Assembly (NCBI RefSeq): GCF_988243305.1
Contig: NZ_OZ547136.1
Reading direction: 5' to 3' (one strand)
DNA length: 64,000 nt
Positions 20,432 to 62,533 of the stretch are shown one piece after another. The position numbers and the translations under genes are program-made. Below the pieces are notes generated by a model. It made no database searches, was not told the origin of the DNA, and saw only the letters and a list, made by a program, of their open reading frames with translations. Positions within the stretch are counted from its first letter, which is position 1; each line of letters opens with the position of its first letter.

Positions 20432-20508
20432 GGAGCGGTAGTTCAGTCGGTTAGAATACCTGCCTGTCACGCAGGGGGTCGCGGGTTCGAGTCCCGTCCG
20501 TTCCGCCA
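20432..20508 (+). tRNA. aspU: tRNA-Asp (GTC anticodon), distal gene of the rRNA operon
   Basis: GGAGCGGTAGTTCAGTCGGTTAGAATACCTGCCTGTCACGCAGGGGGTCGCGGGTTCGAGTCCCGTCCGTTCCGCCA. Confidence 0.95.
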
Positions 20509-28653: not shown

Positions 28654-28730
28654 GGAGCGGTAGTTCAGTCGGTTAGAATACCTGCCTGTCACGCAGGGGG
28701 TCGCGGGTTCGAGTCCCGTCCGTTCCGCCA
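28654..28730 (+). tRNA. aspV: tRNA-Asp (GTC), the island-associated copy
   Basis: Sequence identical to the tRNA-Asp at 20432..20508; followed by a hairpin and T-run at about 28758..28790. Confidence 0.95.
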
Positions 28731-50474: not shown

Positions 50475-50993
50475 ATGCCAACCCCATGTTACATTTCTAT
50501 TACGGGCCAGACCCAGGGGAACATCACTGCCGGTGCTTTCACCGCGGATTCTGTCGGCAATATCTACGTGCAGGGGCACGAAGATGAAATGCTGGTGCAG
50601 GAGTTTTTGCACAACGTTACTGTTCCAACCGATCCGCAGTCTGGCCAGCCTTCCGGCCAGCGCGCGCACAAACCGTTCATTTTCACCGTGGCGCTGAACA
50701 AAGCCGTTCCGCTGCTGTACAACGCGCTGGCCTCCGGTGAAATGCTGCCGAAAGTGGAGCTGCACTGGTGGCGTACTTCAGTTGAAGGCAAGCAGGAGCA
50801 CTACTTCACCACACGTCTTACTGACGCGACGATTGTGGACATGAACCTGCACATGCCGCACTGCCAGGACCCTGCACAGCGTGAGTTTACGCAATTGCTC
50901 GCAGTATCACTGGCATACCGTAAGGTTGAGTGGGAGCACATCAAATCCGGTACTTCTGGTGCCGATGACTGGCGTGCACCGCTGGAAGCATAA
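50475..50993 (+). CDS. hcp: T6SS tube protein Hcp (TssD), canonical copy
   Basis: 172 aa from MPTPCYISITGQTQGNITAGAF with RBS AAGGAG; strong resemblance to the canonical Hcp as remembered from V. cholerae. Confidence 0.92.
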   Translation: MPTPCYISITGQTQGNITAGAFTADSVGNIYVQGHEDEMLVQEFLHNVTVPTDPQSGQPSGQRAHKPFIFTVALNKAVPLLYNALASGEMLPKVELHWWRTSVEGKQEHYFTTRLTDATIVDMNLHMPHCQDPAQREFTQLLAVSLAYRKVEWEHIKSGTSGADDWRAPLEA

Positions 50994-51213: not shown

Positions 51214-53196
51214 ATGTCCTTAAAAGGTCTGCGCTTTACGCTGGAGGTTGACGGCCAGGAGCCGGACACCTTTGCAGTGGTGAATTTCAGGTTAATCCAG
51301 AACCAGTCATATCCGTTTGTGATGAGTGTGGATGTTGCCAGCGACTCTTTTATGCAGACGGCGGAGATGCTGCTGGAGAAGAAGGCGACACTGACCATCT
51401 GGCAGGGCGCAGTGGCGCAGCGTTATGTCACCGGCGTGGTGGCGGGTTTTGGCATGCAGGAGAATAACGGCTGGCAGATGCGTTATCACCTGCGTATTGA
51501 GCCGCCGTTATGGCGGTGCGGGCTGCGGCAGAACTTCCGTATCTTCCAGCAGCAGGATATCCGGACGATATCGGCCACGTTACTGAACGAGAACGGCGTC
51601 ACGGAGTGGACGCCGCTGTTTTATGAGGACCATCCGGCGCGGGAGTTCTGTGTCCAGTACGGGGAGTCGGACCTGGCGTTTCTGTCCCGGCTGTGGGCGG
51701 AGGAGGGAATTTTCTTCTTTGAGCGGTTTGCGGCGGACAGTCCGGAGCAGAAGCTGACGCTGTGCGACGATGTGGCGGGGCTGTCACAGGCGGGAGAGCT
51801 TCCGTTTAACCCGGACACATCGACAGGAGCGGAGACGGAGTGTGTCAGTATGTTCCGTTATGAGGCGCATGTCCGCCCGTCGTCGGTGCAGAGCCAGGAT
51901 TACACGTTTAAGGTGCCGGACTGGCCGGGGATGTATGAGCAGCAGGGTGAGAACCTGAACGGACAGCTGGCGCAGTATGAGATATTTGATTATCCGGGAA
52001 GGTTCAAGGACGAGCAGCACGGCAAGGATTTCACGCTGTACCAGATGGGCAGCCTGCGCAGTGATGCGGAAAAGGCCACAGGGCAGAGTAATTCACCGAA
52101 GCTGTGGCCGGGAACGCAGTTTACGCTGACGGGGCATCCGCAGAAGATGCTGAACCGTGAATGGCAGGTGGTACAGAGCATACTGTCAGGAAGCCAGCCG
52201 CAGGCGCTGCACGGCAGCCAGGGGAGAGGAACCACGCTGGGAAATCAGTTAGAGGTGATACCGGCAGACCGGACGTGGCGTCCACGGCTGCAAAGCAAAC
52301 CGAAGGTGGACGGGCCACAGAGCGCCATTGTCACCGGGCCTGCGGGAGAGGAAATCTTCTGCGACGAACATGGCCGGGTACGGGTGAAGTTCCACTGGGA
52401 CCGTTATCACGGGATGACGGAGGCGAGTTCATGCTGGGTGCGGGTATCGCAGGCGTGGGCGGGGCCGGGTTTCGGCAATCTGGCGATACCGCGGGTGGGT
52501 CAGGAGGTGATTGTTGATTTCCTGAACGGCGACCCGGACCAGCCGATAATCATGGGACGGACATACCATGAGGACAACCGTTCGCCGGGGAGTCTGCCGG
52601 GGACGAAGACGCAGATGACGATACGGTCGAAGACCTATAAAGGAAGCGGATTTAACGAACTGCGCTTTGAGGACGCCACAGATAAGGAACAGGTCTATAT
52701 TCACGCGCAGAAGAACATGGATACGGAAGTGCTGAATGACCGGACGACGGACGTGAAGCATGACCACACGGAAACCATTGGTAACGACCAGAAGATAACG
52801 GTGGGGTTGGGCCAGACGGTGAATGTGGGGAGCAAAAAGGAAGGTGGTCATGACCAGAAAGTGACGGTAGCGAACGATCAGCATCTCACGATAAAAAATG
52901 ACCGGCACAAGGTTGTAAATAACAACCAGACAAGCAAGGTGACGGGAACTGATACCGAAGAAGTCGTCAAAAAACAGAGTATTAAAATAGGTGATAATTA
53001 CGAACTGAAAGTTGAGCATGGTACAAAAATCATATCTGGGGACAGTATTGAGCTAATTTGTGGGCAGGGAGAGAGCGGGACTTGTTCCATAAAACTGGAG
53101 AAAACAGGAAAGATAATAATACGGGGGACGGAGTTTCTATTTGAGGCTACCGGTCCTGTAGATATTAAAGGAAAAGATATTCATCTGAACGGATAG
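51214..53196 (+). CDS. vgrG: T6SS spike protein VgrG (TssI), no C-terminal toxin extension
   Basis: 660 aa; gp27/gp5-like VgrG; C-terminal repeats (HDQKVTVANDQHLTIKNDRHKV); the 3' about 350 nt are visibly AT-richer than the rest. Confidence 0.92.
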   Translation: MSLKGLRFTLEVDGQEPDTFAVVNFRLIQNQSYPFVMSVDVASDSFMQTAEMLLEKKATLTIWQGAVAQRYVTGVVAGFGMQENNGWQMRYHLRIEPPLWRCGLRQNFRIFQQQDIRTISATLLNENGVTEWTPLFYEDHPAREFCVQYGESDLAFLSRLWAEEGIFFFERFAADSPEQKLTLCDDVAGLSQAGELPFNPDTSTGAETECVSMFRYEAHVRPSSVQSQDYTFKVPDWPGMYEQQGENLNGQLAQYEIFDYPGRFKDEQHGKDFTLYQMGSLRSDAEKATGQSNSPKLWPGTQFTLTGHPQKMLNREWQVVQSILSGSQPQALHGSQGRGTTLGNQLEVIPADRTWRPRLQSKPKVDGPQSAIVTGPAGEEIFCDEHGRVRVKFHWDRYHGMTEASSCWVRVSQAWAGPGFGNLAIPRVGQEVIVDFLNGDPDQPIIMGRTYHEDNRSPGSLPGTKTQMTIRSKTYKGSGFNELRFEDATDKEQVYIHAQKNMDTEVLNDRTTDVKHDHTETIGNDQKITVGLGQTVNVGSKKEGGHDQKVTVANDQHLTIKNDRHKVVNNNQTSKVTGTDTEEVVKKQSIKIGDNYELKVEHGTKIISGDSIELICGQGESGTCSIKLEKTGKIIIRGTEFLFEATGPVDIKGKDIHLNG

Positions 53197-53302: not shown

Positions 53303-54349
53303 ATGATAGAAATGAAAAATAACACACCATTTCCTTTGTTGTCATTTGAAAAATATGGTCGTTATGGTCTTTTGTTTGATGTTATTGCTATTAAAATGTC
53401 ATTGCGAATTAAAAATGGATTTTATGCTGATCTTGCTGAGTTTCAAAAAGAATTGTCCATGTCTGATGAATACTATGGGGAGTCTGAAACAAGTAGTCTA
53501 AAATCTGAAACAGACTTAGTTCTTTGTAAAAGAAATACAGATATTCACGTGACAGGTAGTGCTCATGCCCCTCCAGGGGATAAGTCTAAGTGGAAGGCTT
53601 GTGTGAGGGTTAATAGTTTTTCTAAAGAACTGAGTTTATCTGGTGTCCGCTACTTACAATATGAGCGAAATCGTTGGCAGATGAGCTTACCAGATAAAAT
53701 TATTAATGTTCCTCTACGCTATGAGCTTGCTTACGGTGGTATTTGGCAACCAGATGGTATGGAGAAATTGGTTTTTTCAGCAAACCCTGTAGGTTGTGGA
53801 TATTATCCTGATATTTCTCAACTTAATACAAGTTGTCAATATAAACTCCCACAAATAACCAGCTCTGCTTTGTCAGAAAACGCTACCATTTTTAATGGGG
53901 AATCTGACTTTTTTCAAGGTGTTGGCCCTGTATCTCGATGGTGGAAAAGTCGCCTCCAGTATGCAGGAACCTACAATGAAGTATGGCGTGAAAAGCGCTA
54001 TCCCTATTTGCCGGATGATTTTGATGAGCGGTTCTACAATAGTGCTCATCCGGATATGATATACACGGGGTTTCTCTCTGGCGATGAAAACATCTCTCTT
54101 GAAGGTTTTTTTAAATTTGAACAGGTTGTTAAGACAAAATTGCCAGGTATACGACCTGTACTTATATTAAAAACCAAGCATAATACATCACATATGTTCT
54201 TACCTGTTGCGGATACAATGGTTATCGATTTAAGTCGACAGGAAATATACCTTACCTGGAGATTAACAATACCTGATTTTTTTGGAATGAAAGAAGGAGT
54301 GCTGAGTTGTATTATTCCTGAATGTATAGGGAAAAAATATTATGGGTAA
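53303..54349 (+). CDS. Putative T6SS adaptor protein (DUF2169-like)
   Basis: 348 aa AT-rich gene immediately downstream of vgrG and translationally coupled (8 nt overlap) to a PAAR-like effector gene, the canonical DUF2169 context; assignment is by context and size, not verified by search. Confidence 0.5.
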   Translation: MIEMKNNTPFPLLSFEKYGRYGLLFDVIAIKMSLRIKNGFYADLAEFQKELSMSDEYYGESETSSLKSETDLVLCKRNTDIHVTGSAHAPPGDKSKWKACVRVNSFSKELSLSGVRYLQYERNRWQMSLPDKIINVPLRYELAYGGIWQPDGMEKLVFSANPVGCGYYPDISQLNTSCQYKLPQITSSALSENATIFNGESDFFQGVGPVSRWWKSRLQYAGTYNEVWREKRYPYLPDDFDERFYNSAHPDMIYTGFLSGDENISLEGFFKFEQVVKTKLPGIRPVLILKTKHNTSHMFLPVADTMVIDLSRQEIYLTWRLTIPDFFGMKEGVLSCIIPECIGKKYYG

Positions 54350-55382
54350 CTATCATATCGGGGATGGTGAATGTAGATTTAGAGTCGTGTGTTCTTCACC
54401 AGATGTATGTGAAGTAGGAGGTTACAAGGTTCCTTTTGACAGTTACCAGACTTTAGATAGTGAAAGACAGTACAGTTCAACGGTATGGGCGCGTGGATGC
54501 AGAGCTTTAAATGTTGGTTCAGTGATTGCTGGAACTCAAAGTAATGCCGGTAAAGGTGTCATATCCGGTACATCTCAAGGAACGGGTGACTGTGTTATTT
54601 TAACGGGAAGTCCGACTGTAACAATAGAAGGGAAACCTGTTGCTTATCATGGTTCAGTTGTTGGGATTAATAACCATAACTGCCTTGGTAAATTGTATAC
54701 CAAAATAAAATCACCAATGATTTCTGTCATTGATAAAACTTTTAGTTATGAAAGGACTGCTGAAGTAATACACGATTTACTGCTTCTGAAGGATCTCCTT
54801 TCTGTTGGGAATATTTTGGGCGGAGATATTTCACCTGAGGTTAAAAATGATTTATTTCAAATAAAAGATCCTGACCAATCATGGGGGGAGTTTTTTTCAA
54901 TAAAGAATATCAGAGAATCTCTCAGGAATGGTATTGAAGGAGATAAATCTCAGATCAGAGAATGGTTTGGAGAGAACACACTTACTCAAATGGGCAATGG
55001 AGCAATCACCACTTTACATGGTGTGGCGGATTTAGCCTTAGTTACATTCGATGCTCTGTTAGATACGGCAACGGCAACGGTTGCTTGCCCGATAGGCGAA
55101 GATGGGTTATGTGAACAGGCAAATATAAATTTAAATGAAAAAGAACAGGCTTTATTTAATATTAGTAATTCATTGATAAATGGGCAAGCATGGGATGCAC
55201 TTAAAAAAATGATAATGGATACAAATAATGGTGATCAGATTGCTCTGGAGCATTTTGCCAGCTTTTTATGGGGCTTTATGATACCCGCAAAAATACCAGA
55301 AGAAAATATCTCTGGGAAAGTATTTGTAGAGCCAGTAGTTTTAGAAGGTGGTGCTGGTGGCAATTGGACAGTATTTGATTAG
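54342..55382 (+). CDS. PAAR-like (DUF4150-type) T6SS effector, N-terminal and linker portion; ends at an in-frame TAG
   Basis: 346 aa; N-terminal about 125 aa with the DUF4150-like pattern (GTGDCVILTGSPTVTIEGKPVAYHGSVVGINNHNCLG); helical central region; the stop TAG at 55380..55382 is in frame with the following toxin-like ORF. Confidence 0.6.
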   Translation: MGNYHIGDGECRFRVVCSSPDVCEVGGYKVPFDSYQTLDSERQYSSTVWARGCRALNVGSVIAGTQSNAGKGVISGTSQGTGDCVILTGSPTVTIEGKPVAYHGSVVGINNHNCLGKLYTKIKSPMISVIDKTFSYERTAEVIHDLLLLKDLLSVGNILGGDISPEVKNDLFQIKDPDQSWGEFFSIKNIRESLRNGIEGDKSQIREWFGENTLTQMGNGAITTLHGVADLALVTFDALLDTATATVACPIGEDGLCEQANINLNEKEQALFNISNSLINGQAWDALKKMIMDTNNGDQIALEHFASFLWGFMIPAKIPEENISGKVFVEPVVLEGGAGGNWTVFD

Positions 55383-55409
55383 GTTTTAGATTCAAATGTA
55401 ATAAAGCAA

Positions 55410-55781
55410 TTGACTTTAACAGGCTGTGGAGCGGCCTGTGGGGAAATGTTGCTTAGGGATAGGTATATTTTTGTCACGCAAAATGTAATTGGAACAGAAT
55501 TAACATCTATGACGTCGCTGGCAAACAAGCTTAATAAATTTGATGTCGGCTGGGAAGGGAATGAAGTGAGCGAATCTAGTTTATATGCCCTCAGTAATAC
55601 TGGTTCATGGGGAGCAATGATGTGGGATTCTGGAAGTAAAGTAGGGCATTGGGTACTTGTTAAGGGTGTTGATGATGCTGGGAATGTGATAATATATGAT
55701 CCATATCAAGGGAGTCGATATCTGATGACTGAACAGGAATTTAAGGAGGTATGGAATGGGCATAGTGTTTACAAACCATAA
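55410..55781 (+). pseudogene. Papain/C39-like cysteine-peptidase toxin domain, in frame with the upstream PAAR ORF (split by one TAG codon)
   Basis: 123 codons with no ATG or RBS before the putative catalytic Cys (GCGAACGEMLL); His (GHWVLVKG) and Asp (DDAGNVIIYDP) complete a papain-like Cys-His-Asp order reminiscent of peptidase C39; continuous with ORF 54342..55382 except for one TAG. Confidence 0.45.
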
Positions 55782-56046
55782 TATTGATTTGTTATCGGTT
55801 GAATTTGATGAGATTACAAAAAATTGTAATTACACTTTTAGTGTAGATGGAGAGACGGCTATCTTTACTGCTAGAATATCAATAATAAGAAATATAAAGG
55901 GAATTAAATATAGCGAAGAACTTGATAAATTTATAATGTCAATAATGCCATTGCAGCCTAAAGTATCAAAAATTTTGGGAGGTGTTACTTGGGATTGTAT
56001 TTGTGGTAAGGAAGTTGGATTTCCTGTGAGATTAATTGGTAAGTGA
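55756..56046 (+). CDS. Candidate cognate immunity protein (cytoplasmic)
   Basis: 96 aa; strong RBS AAGGAGG 7 nt before the ATG; overlaps the last 26 nt of the toxin-domain ORF; no signal peptide. Confidence 0.5.
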   Translation: MGIVFTNHNIDLLSVEFDEITKNCNYTFSVDGETAIFTARISIIRNIKGIKYSEELDKFIMSIMPLQPKVSKILGGVTWDCICGKEVGFPVRLIGK

Positions 56047-56284: not shown

Positions 56285-57130
56285 GCATAATTAAGGGGGC
56301 AAAATGGAACTTAAAAAATTGATGGAACATATTTCTGTTATCCCCGATTACAGGCAAGCCTGGAAAGTGGAACATAAATTGCCAGATATTCTATCTGTTA
56401 ACTATTTGCGCCGTTATTTCTGGTGCATAAGGCTGGGAAGATATAGAGGATTTGGGGAAACACATCTCGATTTTTTGAAGTGATATGGTGATTTTGAAAA
56501 TGGTATTCCTGTTCACGATATCATTGCCAGAGTTGTATCCTGTATCAGTCCTGCAAAATTTTACGAGTGCTTTATTAACTGGATGCGTGACTGTCATTCT
56601 TCAGATGATAAAGACATCATCGCAATTGATGGAAAAACGCTCCGGCACTCTTATGATAAAAGTCGTCAAAAGGGAGCAATTTATGTCATTAAAATCCGTC
56701 TTCATATTGTTTGCATGTCTCTGATGAATTTATTGATTTTACGTTTGAATGGAAAGGGCTGAAGAAATTATGCATGGCAGTCTCATTTCGCTCAATAATA
56801 GCAGAACAAAAGAAAAATCCCGAAATGACGGTCAGATATTATAGCATTTCTGCTGATTTAACCGCAGAGAAGTTCGCCACAGCGAACCGAAATCACTGGC
56901 AAGTGGAGAATAAATTGCACTGGCATCTGGACGTGGTAATGAATAAAGACGACTTCAAAATAAGAAGAGGAAATGCAGCAGAATTATTTTCAGGGATACG
57001 GAAGATCGCTATTAATATTTTAACGAAAGATAAGATAATCAAGGCAGGGGCAAGATGTAAGATGTGAAAAGCAGCTGCGGACAGAGACTACCTCGCGTCA
57101 GTCCTTGCGGGGGCGGGCTTTCGTAATCTT
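56285..57130 (+). pseudogene. ISAs1-family (H-repeat-associated) transposase, degenerate: frameshifts plus internal deletion
   Basis: Segments matching the N-terminus ([26 protein letters not shown]...GETHLDFLK), middle ([10 protein letters not shown]...[19 protein letters not shown]) and C-terminus ([12 protein letters not shown]...[18 protein letters not shown]...[20 protein letters not shown]) of H-repeat transposases in different frames, with about 120 codons missing from the middle. Confidence 0.75.
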
Positions 57131-57295: not shown

Positions 57296-57799
57296 ATGGT
57301 AGATATTGTCGAGGCCGATAAAACGGATATTTATTTCATTCAGGAGAGTGTTTATGGCAAAATCGGGTTGCCAGCTTTGGGTAATACAATAGGACCATCC
57401 GCACAGCAAGTTGTTAAAAAGGTATTCGCTGTCGTTAAAGAACGAGATAAGACACATGCAAAACAGAGATTATTGTTGGAATATAATGGTAACAAACTCT
57501 GGATGAATGCTATTGATGGCAGTGAAGCTATCCTACCAACAGAATTTTCTAAGCGGTACGAACTTTCATTATTCAATACTACTAATTTTGGAGAAGATCC
57601 TTTTCCTGATGTTAATTTATATAATAATATGAAATCAAGTTTTTTTGTAAGGTTTGGTGGAACATCCCATCCCGAGGCTTGGGCTATTTATAATGCAAGT
57701 ACGAAAGAGGTTAAATATATAGAAACTGCAAGAGAAATTGATAAAATATTCAGTGATTTTAACTTGAGTGGTACATTGCCAATTCACATTGGTCAATGA
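57296..57799 (+). CDS. Hypothetical protein (cysteine-free, no signal peptide)
   Basis: 167 aa ORF with strong RBS (GGAGGG) 6 nt upstream; AT-rich; between the two ISAs1 fragments; no recognisable family. Confidence 0.45.
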   Translation: MVDIVEADKTDIYFIQESVYGKIGLPALGNTIGPSAQQVVKKVFAVVKERDKTHAKQRLLLEYNGNKLWMNAIDGSEAILPTEFSKRYELSLFNTTNFGEDPFPDVNLYNNMKSSFFVRFGGTSHPEAWAIYNASTKEVKYIETAREIDKIFSDFNLSGTLPIHIGQ

Positions 57800-57864: not shown

Positions 57865-58377
57865 ATGAATAAACGGATTGAATGTGTTATGTTAAAAATG
57901 AGTTTATACGTAATAATATTGTTATTTTCCTTTCAGATTAGTGCAGCCATTACTAGCAAGGAAAGTGAGGTTGTTTCACCATTATTAATGGATGTTAATT
58001 CTTCACTAACAATGGAAAATATATCTGAATTATCCACATCATCGGAACCATCGCAACAGGGGGTATTTCCTGTAATATGTACTCGACTTCATCCTGGCTC
58101 CGTAATGAAACGCCAGTTATTAACCGGCTGGGGGCCTGTTTTTATAATTGGTGATGATCCTTTTTCTCTGCGCTGGATGAGTGAACATCTGGAGATCCTT
58201 AAATCGCTAAATGCCCTTGGTTTGGTTGTTAATGTTGAATCAGTAGAACGAATGGAGGTATTACAGCAGCGGGCTGATGGGTTATTGTTATTGCCAGTTA
58301 TCTGCGATAATTTCGTGCAAACTCTGCAATTAAATGCTTATCCGGTATTAATCACAGAGATGGAAATATCACAATGA
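57865..58377 (+). CDS. Hypothetical exported protein (signal peptide)
   Basis: 170 aa ORF with N-terminal signal-like segment (MLKMSLYVIILLFSFQISAAITS); AT-rich; no recognisable family. Confidence 0.45.
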   Translation: MNKRIECVMLKMSLYVIILLFSFQISAAITSKESEVVSPLLMDVNSSLTMENISELSTSSEPSQQGVFPVICTRLHPGSVMKRQLLTGWGPVFIIGDDPFSLRWMSEHLEILKSLNALGLVVNVESVERMEVLQQRADGLLLLPVICDNFVQTLQLNAYPVLITEMEISQ

Positions 58378-58394
58378 TTAATAACATAATTACT

Positions 58395-58640
58395 GCAAAT
58401 AATATCGTAATTTTGAAAATGGTAATCCTGTTCACGACACCATAATTAGAGTTATGTCTTGTATCCGTTCAGTATAATTTCACGAATGCTTTATTAACTG
58501 GATGCGAGATTGCCATTCATCAAATGATAAAGACGTCATCGCAATTGATGGAAAAGCGCTTCCACACTCCTATGATAAAAGTGGTCGCAGGAGAGCGGGC
58601 TTTCGTAGTCATACCCCGACTCTCCCCAGCCCTAAACACA
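58395..58640 (+). pseudogene. yafF: ISAs1-family (H-repeat) transposase fragment, second copy (yafF-like remnant)
   Basis: About 220 bp direct repeat of 56490..56700 encoding FENGNPVHDTI...[35 protein letters not shown], adjacent to yafV. Confidence 0.7.
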
Positions 58641-58648
58641 ACCCCCAC

Positions 58649-59428
58649 TCACCACAACCTAAACTCATCCGCATCCCGCCATGCCGGAAACTTTTCTCTA
58701 TACTCCCGCAACGCCATCATCGACAGCTCCGCATCAATGCGCGTTGCCTGATGCGCGTCGGCAGTAGCGATAATCTCGCCTTGCGGATTAATCACCCGGC
58801 TGTCACCACGATAATGGCAGCCGTTGCCATCGCTGCCGACGCGATTGCATCCCGCCACATACGCCTGATTCTCAATCGCGCGGGCTGTCAGCAATGCCTG
58901 CCAGTGCAGAGAGCGCGGAGCAGGCCAGTTGGCGACGTACAGGGCGAGGTCATAATCGTTGAGATTGCGCGACCACACCGGAAAACGTAAGTCGTAGCAC
59001 ACCAGCGGCAAAATACGCCAGCCGCGCCATTCCACAATCACTCGCGCATTGCCCGCTTTATAATGTAGATGCTCATCTGCCATGCGGAACAGATGACGCT
59101 TATCATAAAAATGTACCGTGCCGCCCGGCTCAACCAGCAAAAAGCGGTTAACCGAACCAGACTCCGTTTGTAATGCAACACTGCCTGCAATCAGCGCATT
59201 GCACTGCTGCGCTTTGGCTGTCATCCAGTTCACTACGTCATCTTGTGCTAGCGACGAAGCTGCCGCTTCCATGGCAAAGCCGCTGGTAAACATCTCCGGT
59301 AGAACGATCACATCGCGTCCGGTAATACCTTCCAGTTGACGATCAAAATGACGCAGGTTGGCAGGACCATCCATCCACACCAGTGGTTGCTGCAAAAGCG
59401 TAATCTTCAAACCAGGCACGGTGTACAA
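58649..59428 (-). CDS. yafV: Omega-amidase (nitrilase/CN-hydrolase family)
   Basis: 259 aa ORF with carbon-nitrogen hydrolase features (catalytic-Cys region LVCYDLRFP); core-genome position before ivy. Confidence 0.85.
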
Positions 59429-59572
59429 CTCCTTTATGCGAAGGGTTTTATAACTTTAACACCTTATCAGGCAGTTGCCTTAGCGCAGAATAAATTGATA
59501 ACAAATGCTGATATTGGAAATATCTGATTTGCAAATTATCGTGTTATCGCCAGGCTTTAGGAGGTTAATAAC

Positions 59573-60046
59573 ATGGGCAGGATAAGCTCGGGAGGAATGA
59601 TGTTTAAGGCAATAACGACAGTCGCCGCTCTGGTCATCGCCACCAGTGCAATGGCGCAGGATGATTTAACCATTAGCAGCCTTGCAAAGGGCGAAACCAC
59701 CAAAGCTGCGTTTAATCAGATGGTGCAAGGGCATAAGCTACCTGCATGGGTGATGAAAGGCGGTACTTATACTCCCGCACAAACCGTAACGTTGGGAGAT
59801 GAGACGTATCAGGTGATGAGCGCGTGCAAACCGCATGACTGTGGCTCGCAACGTATCGCTGTGATGTGGTCCGAGAAATCTAATCAGATGACGGGGCTGT
59901 TCTCGACTATTGATGAGAAAACGTCGCAAGAGAAACTCACCTGGTTGAATGTGAACGATGCGCTTTCGATTGATGGTAAAACGGTGCTGTTCGCGGCGTT
60001 GACCGGCAGCCTGGAAAACCATCCGGATGGCTTTAATTTTAAATAA
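59573..60046 (+). CDS. ivy: Inhibitor of vertebrate lysozyme (periplasmic)
   Basis: 157 aa ORF with signal peptide (VAALVIATSAMAQDD) and CKPHDC loop motif. Confidence 0.88.
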   Translation: MGRISSGGMMFKAITTVAALVIATSAMAQDDLTISSLAKGETTKAAFNQMVQGHKLPAWVMKGGTYTPAQTVTLGDETYQVMSACKPHDCGSQRIAVMWSEKSNQMTGLFSTIDEKTSQEKLTWLNVNDALSIDGKTVLFAALTGSLENHPDGFNFK

Positions 60047-60057
60047 TTAGCGGATAA

Positions 60058-60088
60058 AGAAACGGAGCCTTTCGGCTCCGTTATTCAA
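60058..60088. terminator. Bidirectional terminator between convergent ivy and fadE
   Basis: aaacggagcctttcggctccgtt hairpin with flanking A/T runs. Confidence 0.65.
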
Positions 60089-62533
60089 TTACGCGGCTTC
60101 AACTTTCCGCACTTTCTCCGGCAACTTTACCGGCTTCGTCGCCAGCTCTTCCGGATCAAAGTCATCAACGTTAATACTGCGCAGACGGCTTTCTTCAGCT
60201 TTCACCAGAATAGCGGCTTCATCTTTATCAATCAGCCCCTTCGCCAGCGCGTTATGCGCCAGTTCATCCAGACGGGTAAACGGCAGGTTTTTACCCAGCT
60301 CTTTACAGATCCGCTGATGAATTGGGTCGGCGGCAATCACATCCACCAGCGCCTCTTCCAGTAAGCCAACCGGGTTATGCTCGCTCGGCGTCAGGTACTG
60401 ACCGCGACCAATACGTGAACGGGTGGCGTTCGGCACTTGTAAAATCTTCGCCACCTTATGATCCAGCTTGTCAGAAGGTGCCAGATAATGACGTCCGGTC
60501 GGGAAGATCACCACATTCAGCAGCCCGGCAACCACGCGGTTCGGGAAGTTTTGCAGTAAATCATCCATCGCCTGTTCAGCCTGATACAGCGCATCCTGTA
60601 CGCCCCAGTGCACCAGCGGCAGGTCGGCTTCATTACGGCCTTCGTCGTCATAACGCTTCAGAACGGCAGAGGCGAGGTAAAGCTGGCTTAAAATATCCCC
60701 CAGACGTGCCGAGATACGCTCACGACGTTTCAGGCTGCCGCCCAGCACAGCCATCGAGACATCAGAAAGCAGGGCGAGGTTGGCGCTCAGGCGGTTCAGG
60801 TGCTGATAGTAGCGTTTAGTGGCATCGCCGGTTGGCGTGCTGCTGGTTAAACCGCGCGTCAGGCCCAGCCAGAAGCTGCGAACTTTGTTGCTACCGACGT
60901 GACCGATATGTTTAAACAGGAGTTTATCGAACGCGTTGACGTCATTGTTCTTCGCCGCTTCCATCTCTTCCAGCACGTACGGATGGCAACGAATCGCTCC
61001 TTGTCCGAAGATCATCATGCTGCGGGTCAGAATGTTAGCCCCTTCAACGGTGATGGCAATCGGCGCGCCCTGGTAAGCACGCGCCAGGAAGTTGCTCTGC
61101 CCGAGCATAATGCCTTTGCCACCAGTGATATCCATCGCATCAATAATCGACTGCTGCCCGCGGTGGGTACAGTGATACTTAACGATAGCCGACAGCACGG
61201 CAGGTTTTTCACCGAGCATAATGCCGTAGGTAATCAGCGATGCCGCAGCATCCATTACATAAGCGTTTCCGGCAATACGCGCCAGCGGCTCTTCAATCCC
61301 TTCCATCTTACCAATAGAGATTTTGAACTGACGGCGGATGTGCGCATACGCACCCGTTGCCAGCGCTACCGATTTCACGCCGCCGGTTGAGTTGGAAGGC
61401 AGGGTGATACCGCGGCCTACCGAGAGGCACTCCACCAGCATCCGCCAGCCTTGCCCGGCCATTTTTGGTCCGCCGATAATGTAATCGATCGGTACGAAGA
61501 CATCTTTACCGCGCGTCGGTCCGTTCTGGAACGGCACGTTCAGCGGGAAGTGGCGACGACCAATTTCCACGCCCGGCGTGGTAGTCGGGATCAGCGCACA
61601 GGTAATACCTAAATCTTCTGCACCGCCGAGTAATTTCTCCGGGTCGGAGAGTTTAAACGCCAGCCCAAGCACGGTCGCAATCGGTGCGAGCGTAATGTAA
61701 CGTTTGTTCCAGGTCAGACGCATCCCCAGCACCTGCTGGCCCTGCCATTCCCCCATGCAGACAATCCCGGTGTCCGGAATCGCGCCCGCATCGGAACCCG
61801 CTTCCGGGCTGGTCAGTGCAAAGCAAGGGATTTCCTGACCACGCGCCAGACGCGGCAGATAGTGATCTTTCTGCTCGTCAGTGCCGTAATGTTGCAGTAG
61901 CTCACCCGGGCCTAATGAGTTTGGCACGCCGACGGTAATCGCCAGGATCCCGCTCACGCCGGAGAGTTTTTGCAGCACGCGAGACTGGGCATAAGCCGAG
62001 AACTCCAGCCCGCCGTACTCTTTTTTGATGATCATCGCGAAGAAACGATGCTCTTTAAGGTACGCCCACAACTCCGGCGGCAAATCAGCCAGCTCATGAG
62101 TAATCTGGAAATCATTCGCCATCCGGCAGGCTTCTTCTACCGGGCCGTCGAGAAACGCTTGCTCTTCTGCGGTCAGGCGCGGCTGCGGATAGTTATGCAG
62201 CTTTTTCCAGTCCGGCTTGCCCTGGAACAAGTCGCCCTCCCACCATGTGGTGCCTGCGTCGATCGCTTCTTTCTCAGTGCGCGACATCGGCGGCATCACC
62301 TTACGGAAGCCGCGAAATACCGGCGCGGAAATCATCGACTTACGCATAGGCGCAAAGTTAAATGGCACGAGGATAATGGCCAGAGGCACCAGTACCCACG
62401 CCGACCACAGACCAGCAACGCCGAGGGCGGCTGTCCAGGCGAGCAAAATCAGACTGCTGATAAATAAGCTCACGCGGTGATAGAACAACGCGCCGAGCAG
62501 GACAACCGTAGCGAGAATACTCAAAATCATCAT
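60089..62533 (-). CDS. fadE: Acyl-CoA dehydrogenase
   Basis: ORF 60089..62611; the internal start [18 protein letters not shown] gives 814 aa; acyl-CoA dehydrogenase domains. Confidence 0.92.

Follow-up and report, generated by a model that had tools for sequence, protein, structure and literature searches.

The window analysed here is a 64,000-nucleotide stretch of contig NZ_OZ547136.1 (assembly GCF_988243305.1), and its subject is the effector module of a type VI secretion system (T6SS), in which the toxin gene cpe1 is followed by the immunity gene cpi1. The module is headed by hcp (50475..50993, 172 aa) and continues, on the plus strand as for all of its features described below, with vgrG (tssI; 51214..53196, 660 aa), a gene for a DUF2169 T6SS accessory (adaptor) protein (53303..54349), cpe1 (54342..55781) and cpi1 (55756..56046). 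The vgrG gene is intact: it has no internal stop, and its product matches TIGR03361 (E 5.7e-182) with 0 amino acid differences from WP_072647986.1. The adaptor gene carries the DUF2169 annotation in all related records, and PF09937 was matched on its product in the near-identical loci L011 and L017. It overlaps the start of cpe1 by 8 nt, and cpi1 overlaps the 3' end of cpe1 by 26 nt. The cpi1 gene is intact and has its own Shine-Dalgarno sequence, read from the letters as a perfect AAGGAGG at 55743-55749, 6 nt ahead of the ATG.

The cpe1 reading frame runs from ATG 54342 for 346 codons to a TAG at 55380-55382. After the TAG, 27 nt (GTT TTA GAT TCA AAT GTA ATA AAG CAA) are free of stops and lead to an in-frame TTG at 55410, and the frame closes at TAA 55779-55781. 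Positions 54342 and 55410 are multiples of 3 and therefore lie in the same frame, and the whole frame comprises 479 sense-codon positions with a single TAG at codon 347. A first-pass annotation made from the letters alone had described the TAG, the 27-nt gap and the shared frame, and we confirmed every detail from the sequence and the list of open reading frames (ORFs). In E. coli ATCC 11775, 536, N41 and YP3, the same 1440 nt form one 479-codon ORF with GAG at codon 347. Since the homologues have a single ORF of 479 codons, the two pieces belong to one interrupted gene and are not a chance coincidence of frames. Alignment with these four references showed 9-11 differences over 1,705 nt (54342-56046), and position 55380 is T in the window and G in all four, a G-to-T transversion that converts Glu347 (GAG) to an amber codon (E347*). 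This agrees with the earlier proposal of a single nonsense mutation in a modular PAAR-like/linker/toxin effector with an intact immunity gene beside it.

The gene pair was identified by megablast of the 1,705-nt stretch against 5,426 complete E. coli genomes. The stretch was present in 335 chromosomes and 0 plasmids, always in the setting vgrG, DUF2169 gene, cpe1 and a 96-codon gene, and most of the matching records annotate one 1,440-nt coding sequence (CDS). Recent RefSeq records name the two genes 'cpe1: cysteine protease effector protein Cpe1' and 'cpi1: cysteine protease immunity protein Cpi1'. The segment after the stop (55383..55781, residues 348-479, ending with TAA) is identical at 131 of 132 residues to chain A of PDB 9L5U (E 9.3e-88), and the product of 55756..56046 matches Cpi1, chain C of the same entry, over all 96 residues (E 3.6e-62). 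The DNA of cpi1 is identical to that encoding WP_000513317.1. On the repaired Cpe1 protein, Pfam found Tox-PAAR-like PF13665 (DUF4150) at residues 15-115 (54384..54686, E 1.4e-11) and Peptidase_C39 PF03412 at residues 352-474 (E 7.9e-6). A search of the NCBIfam models with Cpi1, the DUF2169 protein and each half of Cpe1 gave no family, VgrG being the sole match, so that the RefSeq names cpe1 and cpi1 do not come from a hidden Markov model of that library. We assigned the genes from their PDB and Pfam matches and from the RefSeq annotation.

Cpe1 of E. coli ATCC 11775 is a papain-like cysteine protease (PLCP) delivered by the T6SS, with Cys362 as the catalytic residue (PLoS Biol 2025, PMC12136450). 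It is a PAAR-like/C39 effector of E. coli T6SS-1, has a crystal structure (9L5U) and cuts GyrB and ParE within LHAGGKF, between the Gly-Gly and KF; its toxicity is abolished by C362A and neutralised by Cpi1 (PMC12136450). The first-pass annotation had recognised a C39-type papain-like toxin domain after the stop, which PF03412 and the near-complete identity to 9L5U chain A bear out. It had also named no characterised T6SS effector with this domain and put it forward as the best candidate for something undescribed, which is not supported: the mechanism, the targets, Cys362 and the Cpe1-Cpi1 structure are published (PMC12136450), and TsaP and EvpQ, two related T6SS protease effectors, precede Cpe1 in the literature (PMC12136450). 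Judged by its sequence, the window gene is a nonsense-disrupted copy of an already characterised toxin and no new toxin.

The T6SS island around the module is complete in its core (tss) genes, all of which are intact in the window. The GC content is 39% in cpe1 and 31% in cpi1, compared with 56% in the core T6SS cluster; a low-GC effector module is usual for swapped-in effector cassettes. A scan of the AT-rich region for promoters and terminators found nothing beyond consensus noise.

Between the PAAR-like domain and the peptidase, the first-pass annotation had placed a linker. A flexible linker is indeed present, and residues 189-346 (54906..55379) are chiefly a homologue of the entry domain of the contact-dependent growth inhibition (CDI) toxin StbD-CT, matching residues 27-184 of the StbD-CT structure PDB 8SSK (phmmer, E 2.4e-32). 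In StbD-CT, a YajC-dependent cytoplasm-entry domain is followed by a flexible linker (Pro135-Val165) and then by a C39 peptidase, and the protein cleaves itself in cis after Gly157-Gly158; its authors state that the entry domain and the processing site are common to Cpe1, and they propose that Cpe1 entry depends on YajC (bioRxiv 10.64898/2026.05.07.723447). The homology between residues 189-346 and the seven-helix StbD-CT entry domain includes the two disulfide cysteines, as ACPIGEDGLC (Cys249, Cys257) aligns with ACATG-DSYC of StbD. Mapping from StbD-CT places the linker at about P315-V344, the auto-processing site at Gly336-Gly337/Ala338 and the catalytic triad at C362, H436 and D453. The codon of the catalytic Cys362, whose replacement by alanine removes toxicity (PMC12136450), lies at 55425..55427, and the codons of His436 (55647-55649) and Asp453 (55698-55700) were mapped from His258 and Asp275 of StbD. 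The amber codon 347 is three residues past the linker and ten residues past the Gly-Gly auto-processing site. Because the stop falls three residues after the linker, the peptidase alone is lost; the truncated product is predicted to keep the PAAR-like domain, the entry-domain homologue and the Gly-Gly site and to lack exactly the peptidase.

Compared with Cpe1-Cpi1 of ATCC 11775 (WP_000528852.1 and WP_000513317.1), the window has the same locus, hcp-vgrG-DUF2169-cpe1-cpi1 adjoining yafV, with 99.4% identity over 1705 nt. The two Cpe1 sequences share the PAAR-like domain, the entry-domain homologue, the Gly-Gly linker and the C362, H436 and D453 codons, and cpi1 is identical, whereas the window differs by E347*, A408E and four N-terminal substitutions, R132K, N135S, F159L and D160G. 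From the window allele no full-length effector would be expected. Among the hallmarks of the Cpe1 family, we found the PAAR-like domain, the C39 domain with its Cys362-His436-Asp453 triad codons, cpi1 directly downstream and the linkage to vgrG, the DUF2169 gene and the T6SS cluster; the continuous 479-aa carrier-toxin ORF is broken by the TAG at codon 347. On this sequence evidence we class the window gene as a pseudogene allele of the Cpe1 family and not as a functional member.

StbD-CT/StbI of Citrobacter rodentium DBS100 (PDB 8SSK, 8SSM) is a comparison from outside the T6SS. Residues 189-477 of the intact Cpe1 allele align with StbD-CT end to end (E 9.7e-83), and both have the entry domain, a flexible linker with a Gly-Gly/Ala site for auto-processing, and a C39 peptidase with GyrB and ParE as its substrates; the immunity proteins Cpi1 and StbI are distant kin (E 6e-9). 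StbD-CT reaches its target by way of a CdiA carrier and OmpF, whereas Cpe1 travels by its PAAR-like domain on the T6SS spike. StbD-CT is a diverged homologue and a separate protein, and the window allele of Cpe1 stops short of the peptidase. TsaP (E. coli) and EvpQ (Edwardsiella piscicida), which we compared by description, are T6SS toxins of the C39-like PLCP type and served as seeds defining the Cpe1 family; by the coordinates in PMC12136450, EvpQ is a small stand-alone effector. The C39 domains of bacteriocin and lantibiotic ABC exporters (ComA, LahT; PDB 3K8U, 6MPZ) are different in kind: they are fused to a transporter, perform housekeeping leader-peptide maturation and are neither secreted as toxins nor paired with an immunity protein.

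We then considered the frequency of the TAG. Alleles were counted with 55-nt queries centred on the stop, so that each 28-nt megablast seed covers the site. Among 332 complete E. coli genomes with the stretch, codon 347 is GAG in 330 and TAG in 2; thus, at the position for which the first-pass annotation had looked to homologues for a sense codon, the four references and nearly all complete genomes have GAG. The window stretch itself is none of the complete genomes. The rarity of the allele (2/332) and the single base that separates the codon from the intact allele could be taken to mean that the TAG is a sequencing or assembly error, the true codon being GAG and the gene intact, as the first-pass annotation had suggested as an alternative. 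However, the two complete genomes with the identical TAG allele come from different laboratories, countries and hosts, and exactly this 346-aa product was counted on 185 contigs and across 462 index blocks. The module is identical over 1705 nt in each of the ten carrier loci that were fetched, and the TAG is accompanied by nine linked substitutions, A408E included. Because the TAG allele recurs across independent carriers and backgrounds, an error is excluded for practical purposes.

The surroundings of the allele vary more than the allele itself. In the carrier loci, the yafV-ivy-fadE flank diverges by up to about 1.4%, a second VgrG-DUF4123-effector-PAAR module lies upstream in some and not in others, and vgrG is broken by an insertion sequence (IS) in two. 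The nearest relatives of the window are L011, L017 and L018, which differ from it at 1-2 positions over 10-13 kb. Comparison of window positions 58511-61337 with L010, L012, L013 and L019 showed that the carriers of cpe1(E347*)-cpi1 have at least three haplotypes of yafV, ivy and fadE, with up to about 40 single-nucleotide polymorphisms in 2.9 kb. These haplotypes indicate recombination around the island or transfer of the island, and E347* is an inherited allele, old enough to occupy several backgrounds.

The linked substitution A408E (codon 408 GAA, 55563..55565) puts a charged residue into the hydrophobic surface that binds substrate and Cpi1. Cpi1 does not bind the active site of Cpe1; it binds a hydrophobic exosite formed by L387, M390, A408, M426, W428 and V434, of which L387, M426 and W428 are required for toxicity (PMC12136450). 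An intact allele with the N-terminal variants of the window was found in the collection once with A408 (P0017) and once with E408 (P0018). Since both intact-ORF alleles exist, A408E probably arose before the stop.

Whether the peptidase part could still be made depends on start signals after the TAG. No GGAG/AGGA-type Shine-Dalgarno sequence was found in the 20 nt ahead of TTG 55410 (ATTCAAATGTAATAAAGCAA). Ahead of the GCGAAC motif, the sequence after the stop has a single ATG, at 55396, which is in another frame; an in-frame ATG first occurs past the motif, at 55446 (Met369). Translation from TTG 55410 would begin at Leu357, directly after Gln356, which is six residues ahead of Cys362; Gln356 occupies what we take to be the position of the oxyanion-hole glutamine in ComA-type C39 peptidases. 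The 111-aa ORF that starts at Met369 (55446..55781), annotated in RefSeq as 'C39 domain-containing protein' (WP_240089701.1), contains neither Gln356 nor Cys362. RNA folding gave a modest hairpin at 55404-55454 (-24.9 kcal/mol, z = -2.3), with TTG 55410 and ATG 55446 inside the stem. The first-pass annotation had stated that the downstream piece has no ATG or Shine-Dalgarno ahead of Cys362, and this held. These features suggest that the C39 segment is now untranslated, or at most weakly translated, and that an active form is unlikely.

Two alternatives would nevertheless supply a peptidase. The open frame on either side of the TAG, the intact catalytic triad codons and the hairpin just downstream are all compatible with amber suppression or programmed readthrough, by which full-length active Cpe1 would be made, perhaps at a regulated low level; the first-pass annotation had listed stop-codon readthrough as well. 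We consider this very unlikely. A recoding site should show a conserved stop in a stimulatory context, whereas codon 347 is GAG in 330/332 genomes and the hairpin, with its weak z-score, is ordinary coding sequence common to the intact alleles. A408E, in the surface that binds the substrate, is a further change of the same allele, and no suppressor tRNA lies within the window. A supE44-type glnV allele, searched for with laboratory strains as positive controls that were recovered, matches 158 genomes; among the 60 of these 158 matches that were listed, most are named laboratory derivatives of K-12 and neither TAG carrier appears. Programmed readthrough is left without support.

In the other alternative the effector is split, and the C39 domain is reinitiated separately after the stop as a free cargo toxin or, without the Cys, as a decoy. 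PLCP toxins do occur both fused to a carrier and as separate downstream genes (PMC12136450), RefSeq annotates the 111-aa ORF at the locus, and the in-frame TTG is 27 nt past the stop. Against these points stand the start sites themselves, as TTG 55410 has no Shine-Dalgarno, begins at Leu357 and lies within the predicted stem, and the ATG-started ORF begins at Met369 and lacks the catalytic Cys362. A free fragment would in addition have neither the PAAR-like nor the entry domain, and with it no known route onto VgrG or into the target cytosol, and the close homologues are single ORFs. We judge a split effector to be highly improbable.

We conclude with high confidence that this part of the E. 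coli T6SS-1 island carries the cpe1-cpi1 pair as a loss-of-function allele, with the toxin disarmed and the immunity kept. In the working that we propose, the G-to-T transversion at 55380 creates the amber stop, and translation would end at residue 346, with the peptidase missing. The DUF2169 adaptor would probably still place the truncated protein on VgrG, where it would act as a spike cap without a toxin, and the C39 segment would not be produced in an active form. Cpi1, with its own strong ribosome-binding site, would still be made and would protect the cell from the Cpe1 of neighbours with an intact gene. Because the peptidase is lost and cpi1 is intact and separately initiated, such a strain would be disarmed for Cpe1 yet immune to it. 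Several points weigh against this conclusion. Readthrough of the amber codon at a low level may occur, as may reinitiation at TTG 55410; the intact alleles with the same N-terminal variants were found once each, so that the ancestry of the allele is thinly documented; and more than 180 assemblies carry no further lesion in the 3' remnant, which could mean that the allele is young or that the remnant is constrained.

It is also conceivable, though unlikely, that E347* is no passing pseudogene and is maintained by selection as a state of toxin-less spike cap plus immunity. We raise this because the stop lies almost exactly at a natural domain boundary, because P0018, with an intact ORF and A408E, suggests a stepwise attenuation, A408E first and the stop second, and because more than 180 assemblies have the identical module, with at least three haplotypes of the flank among its carriers; this support is circumstantial. 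If it were true, selection would drop Cpe1 toxicity and keep the PAAR-like/entry-domain protein for firing and Cpi1 for protection.

Other states of decay were seen at related loci. In CU37RT-2 an IS3 insertion splits cpe1, and E7-1N7 (L020 2501-3522) has a frameshifted, C-terminally truncated PAAR-like gene; by their sequences, these lesions are taken as independent inactivations of cpe1. In O145:H28 RM13514 (L007 3527-5767), an orphan 3' part of cpe1 with an intact cpi1 lies at another site, between yncG and pptA, where a vgrG that has lost its C-terminal end runs straight into the last ~500 nt of cpe1 and a small PAAR gene precedes it. This cpe1 remnant runs from codon 314, the start of the linker, and has GAG at codon 347. 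Because the RM13514 homology begins where the linker begins, the 'IPAK' junction hints at a possible cassette boundary for toxin swapping. Loss of the effector with the immunity kept recurs here, in E347*, CU37RT-2, E7-1N7 and the O145:H28 remnants, and such loss with immunity retention is a familiar and expected pattern of T6SS effector-immunity turnover.

For annotation, these results mean that the two RefSeq CDSs, the 'PAAR-like domain-containing protein' of 346 codons (54342..55382, WP_240089697.1), which is still translatable, and the 111-aa 'C39 domain-containing protein', are one disrupted cpe1 and should be recorded as a pseudogene. The effector, its fold, its targets, the immunity mechanism and the structure are already published, and the intact gene is already named cpe1 in RefSeq. 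The locus has little weight for discovery, and its practical value lies in annotation, together with a small population-level point.

Some features at the edges of the island were also recorded. A tRNA-Asp gene at 28654-28730 (the aspV position) lies just beyond the T6SS island, whose end is near 29 kb, and a further tRNA-Asp gene at 20432-20508 follows the rRNA operon at ~15-21 kb; a tRNA-Asp setting is the usual insertion context of E. coli T6SS-1. On the other side, between cpi1 and yafV, there are degenerate ISAs1-family transposase fragments with frameshifts and internal stops at 56304-57067 and 58502-58700. Two small genes lie between these fragments: 57296-57799, for a 167-aa product of no known family, and 57889-58377 (DUF2859), the latter annotated as 'integrating conjugative element protein'. 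The fragments and the small genes look like mobile-DNA remnants at the island edge.

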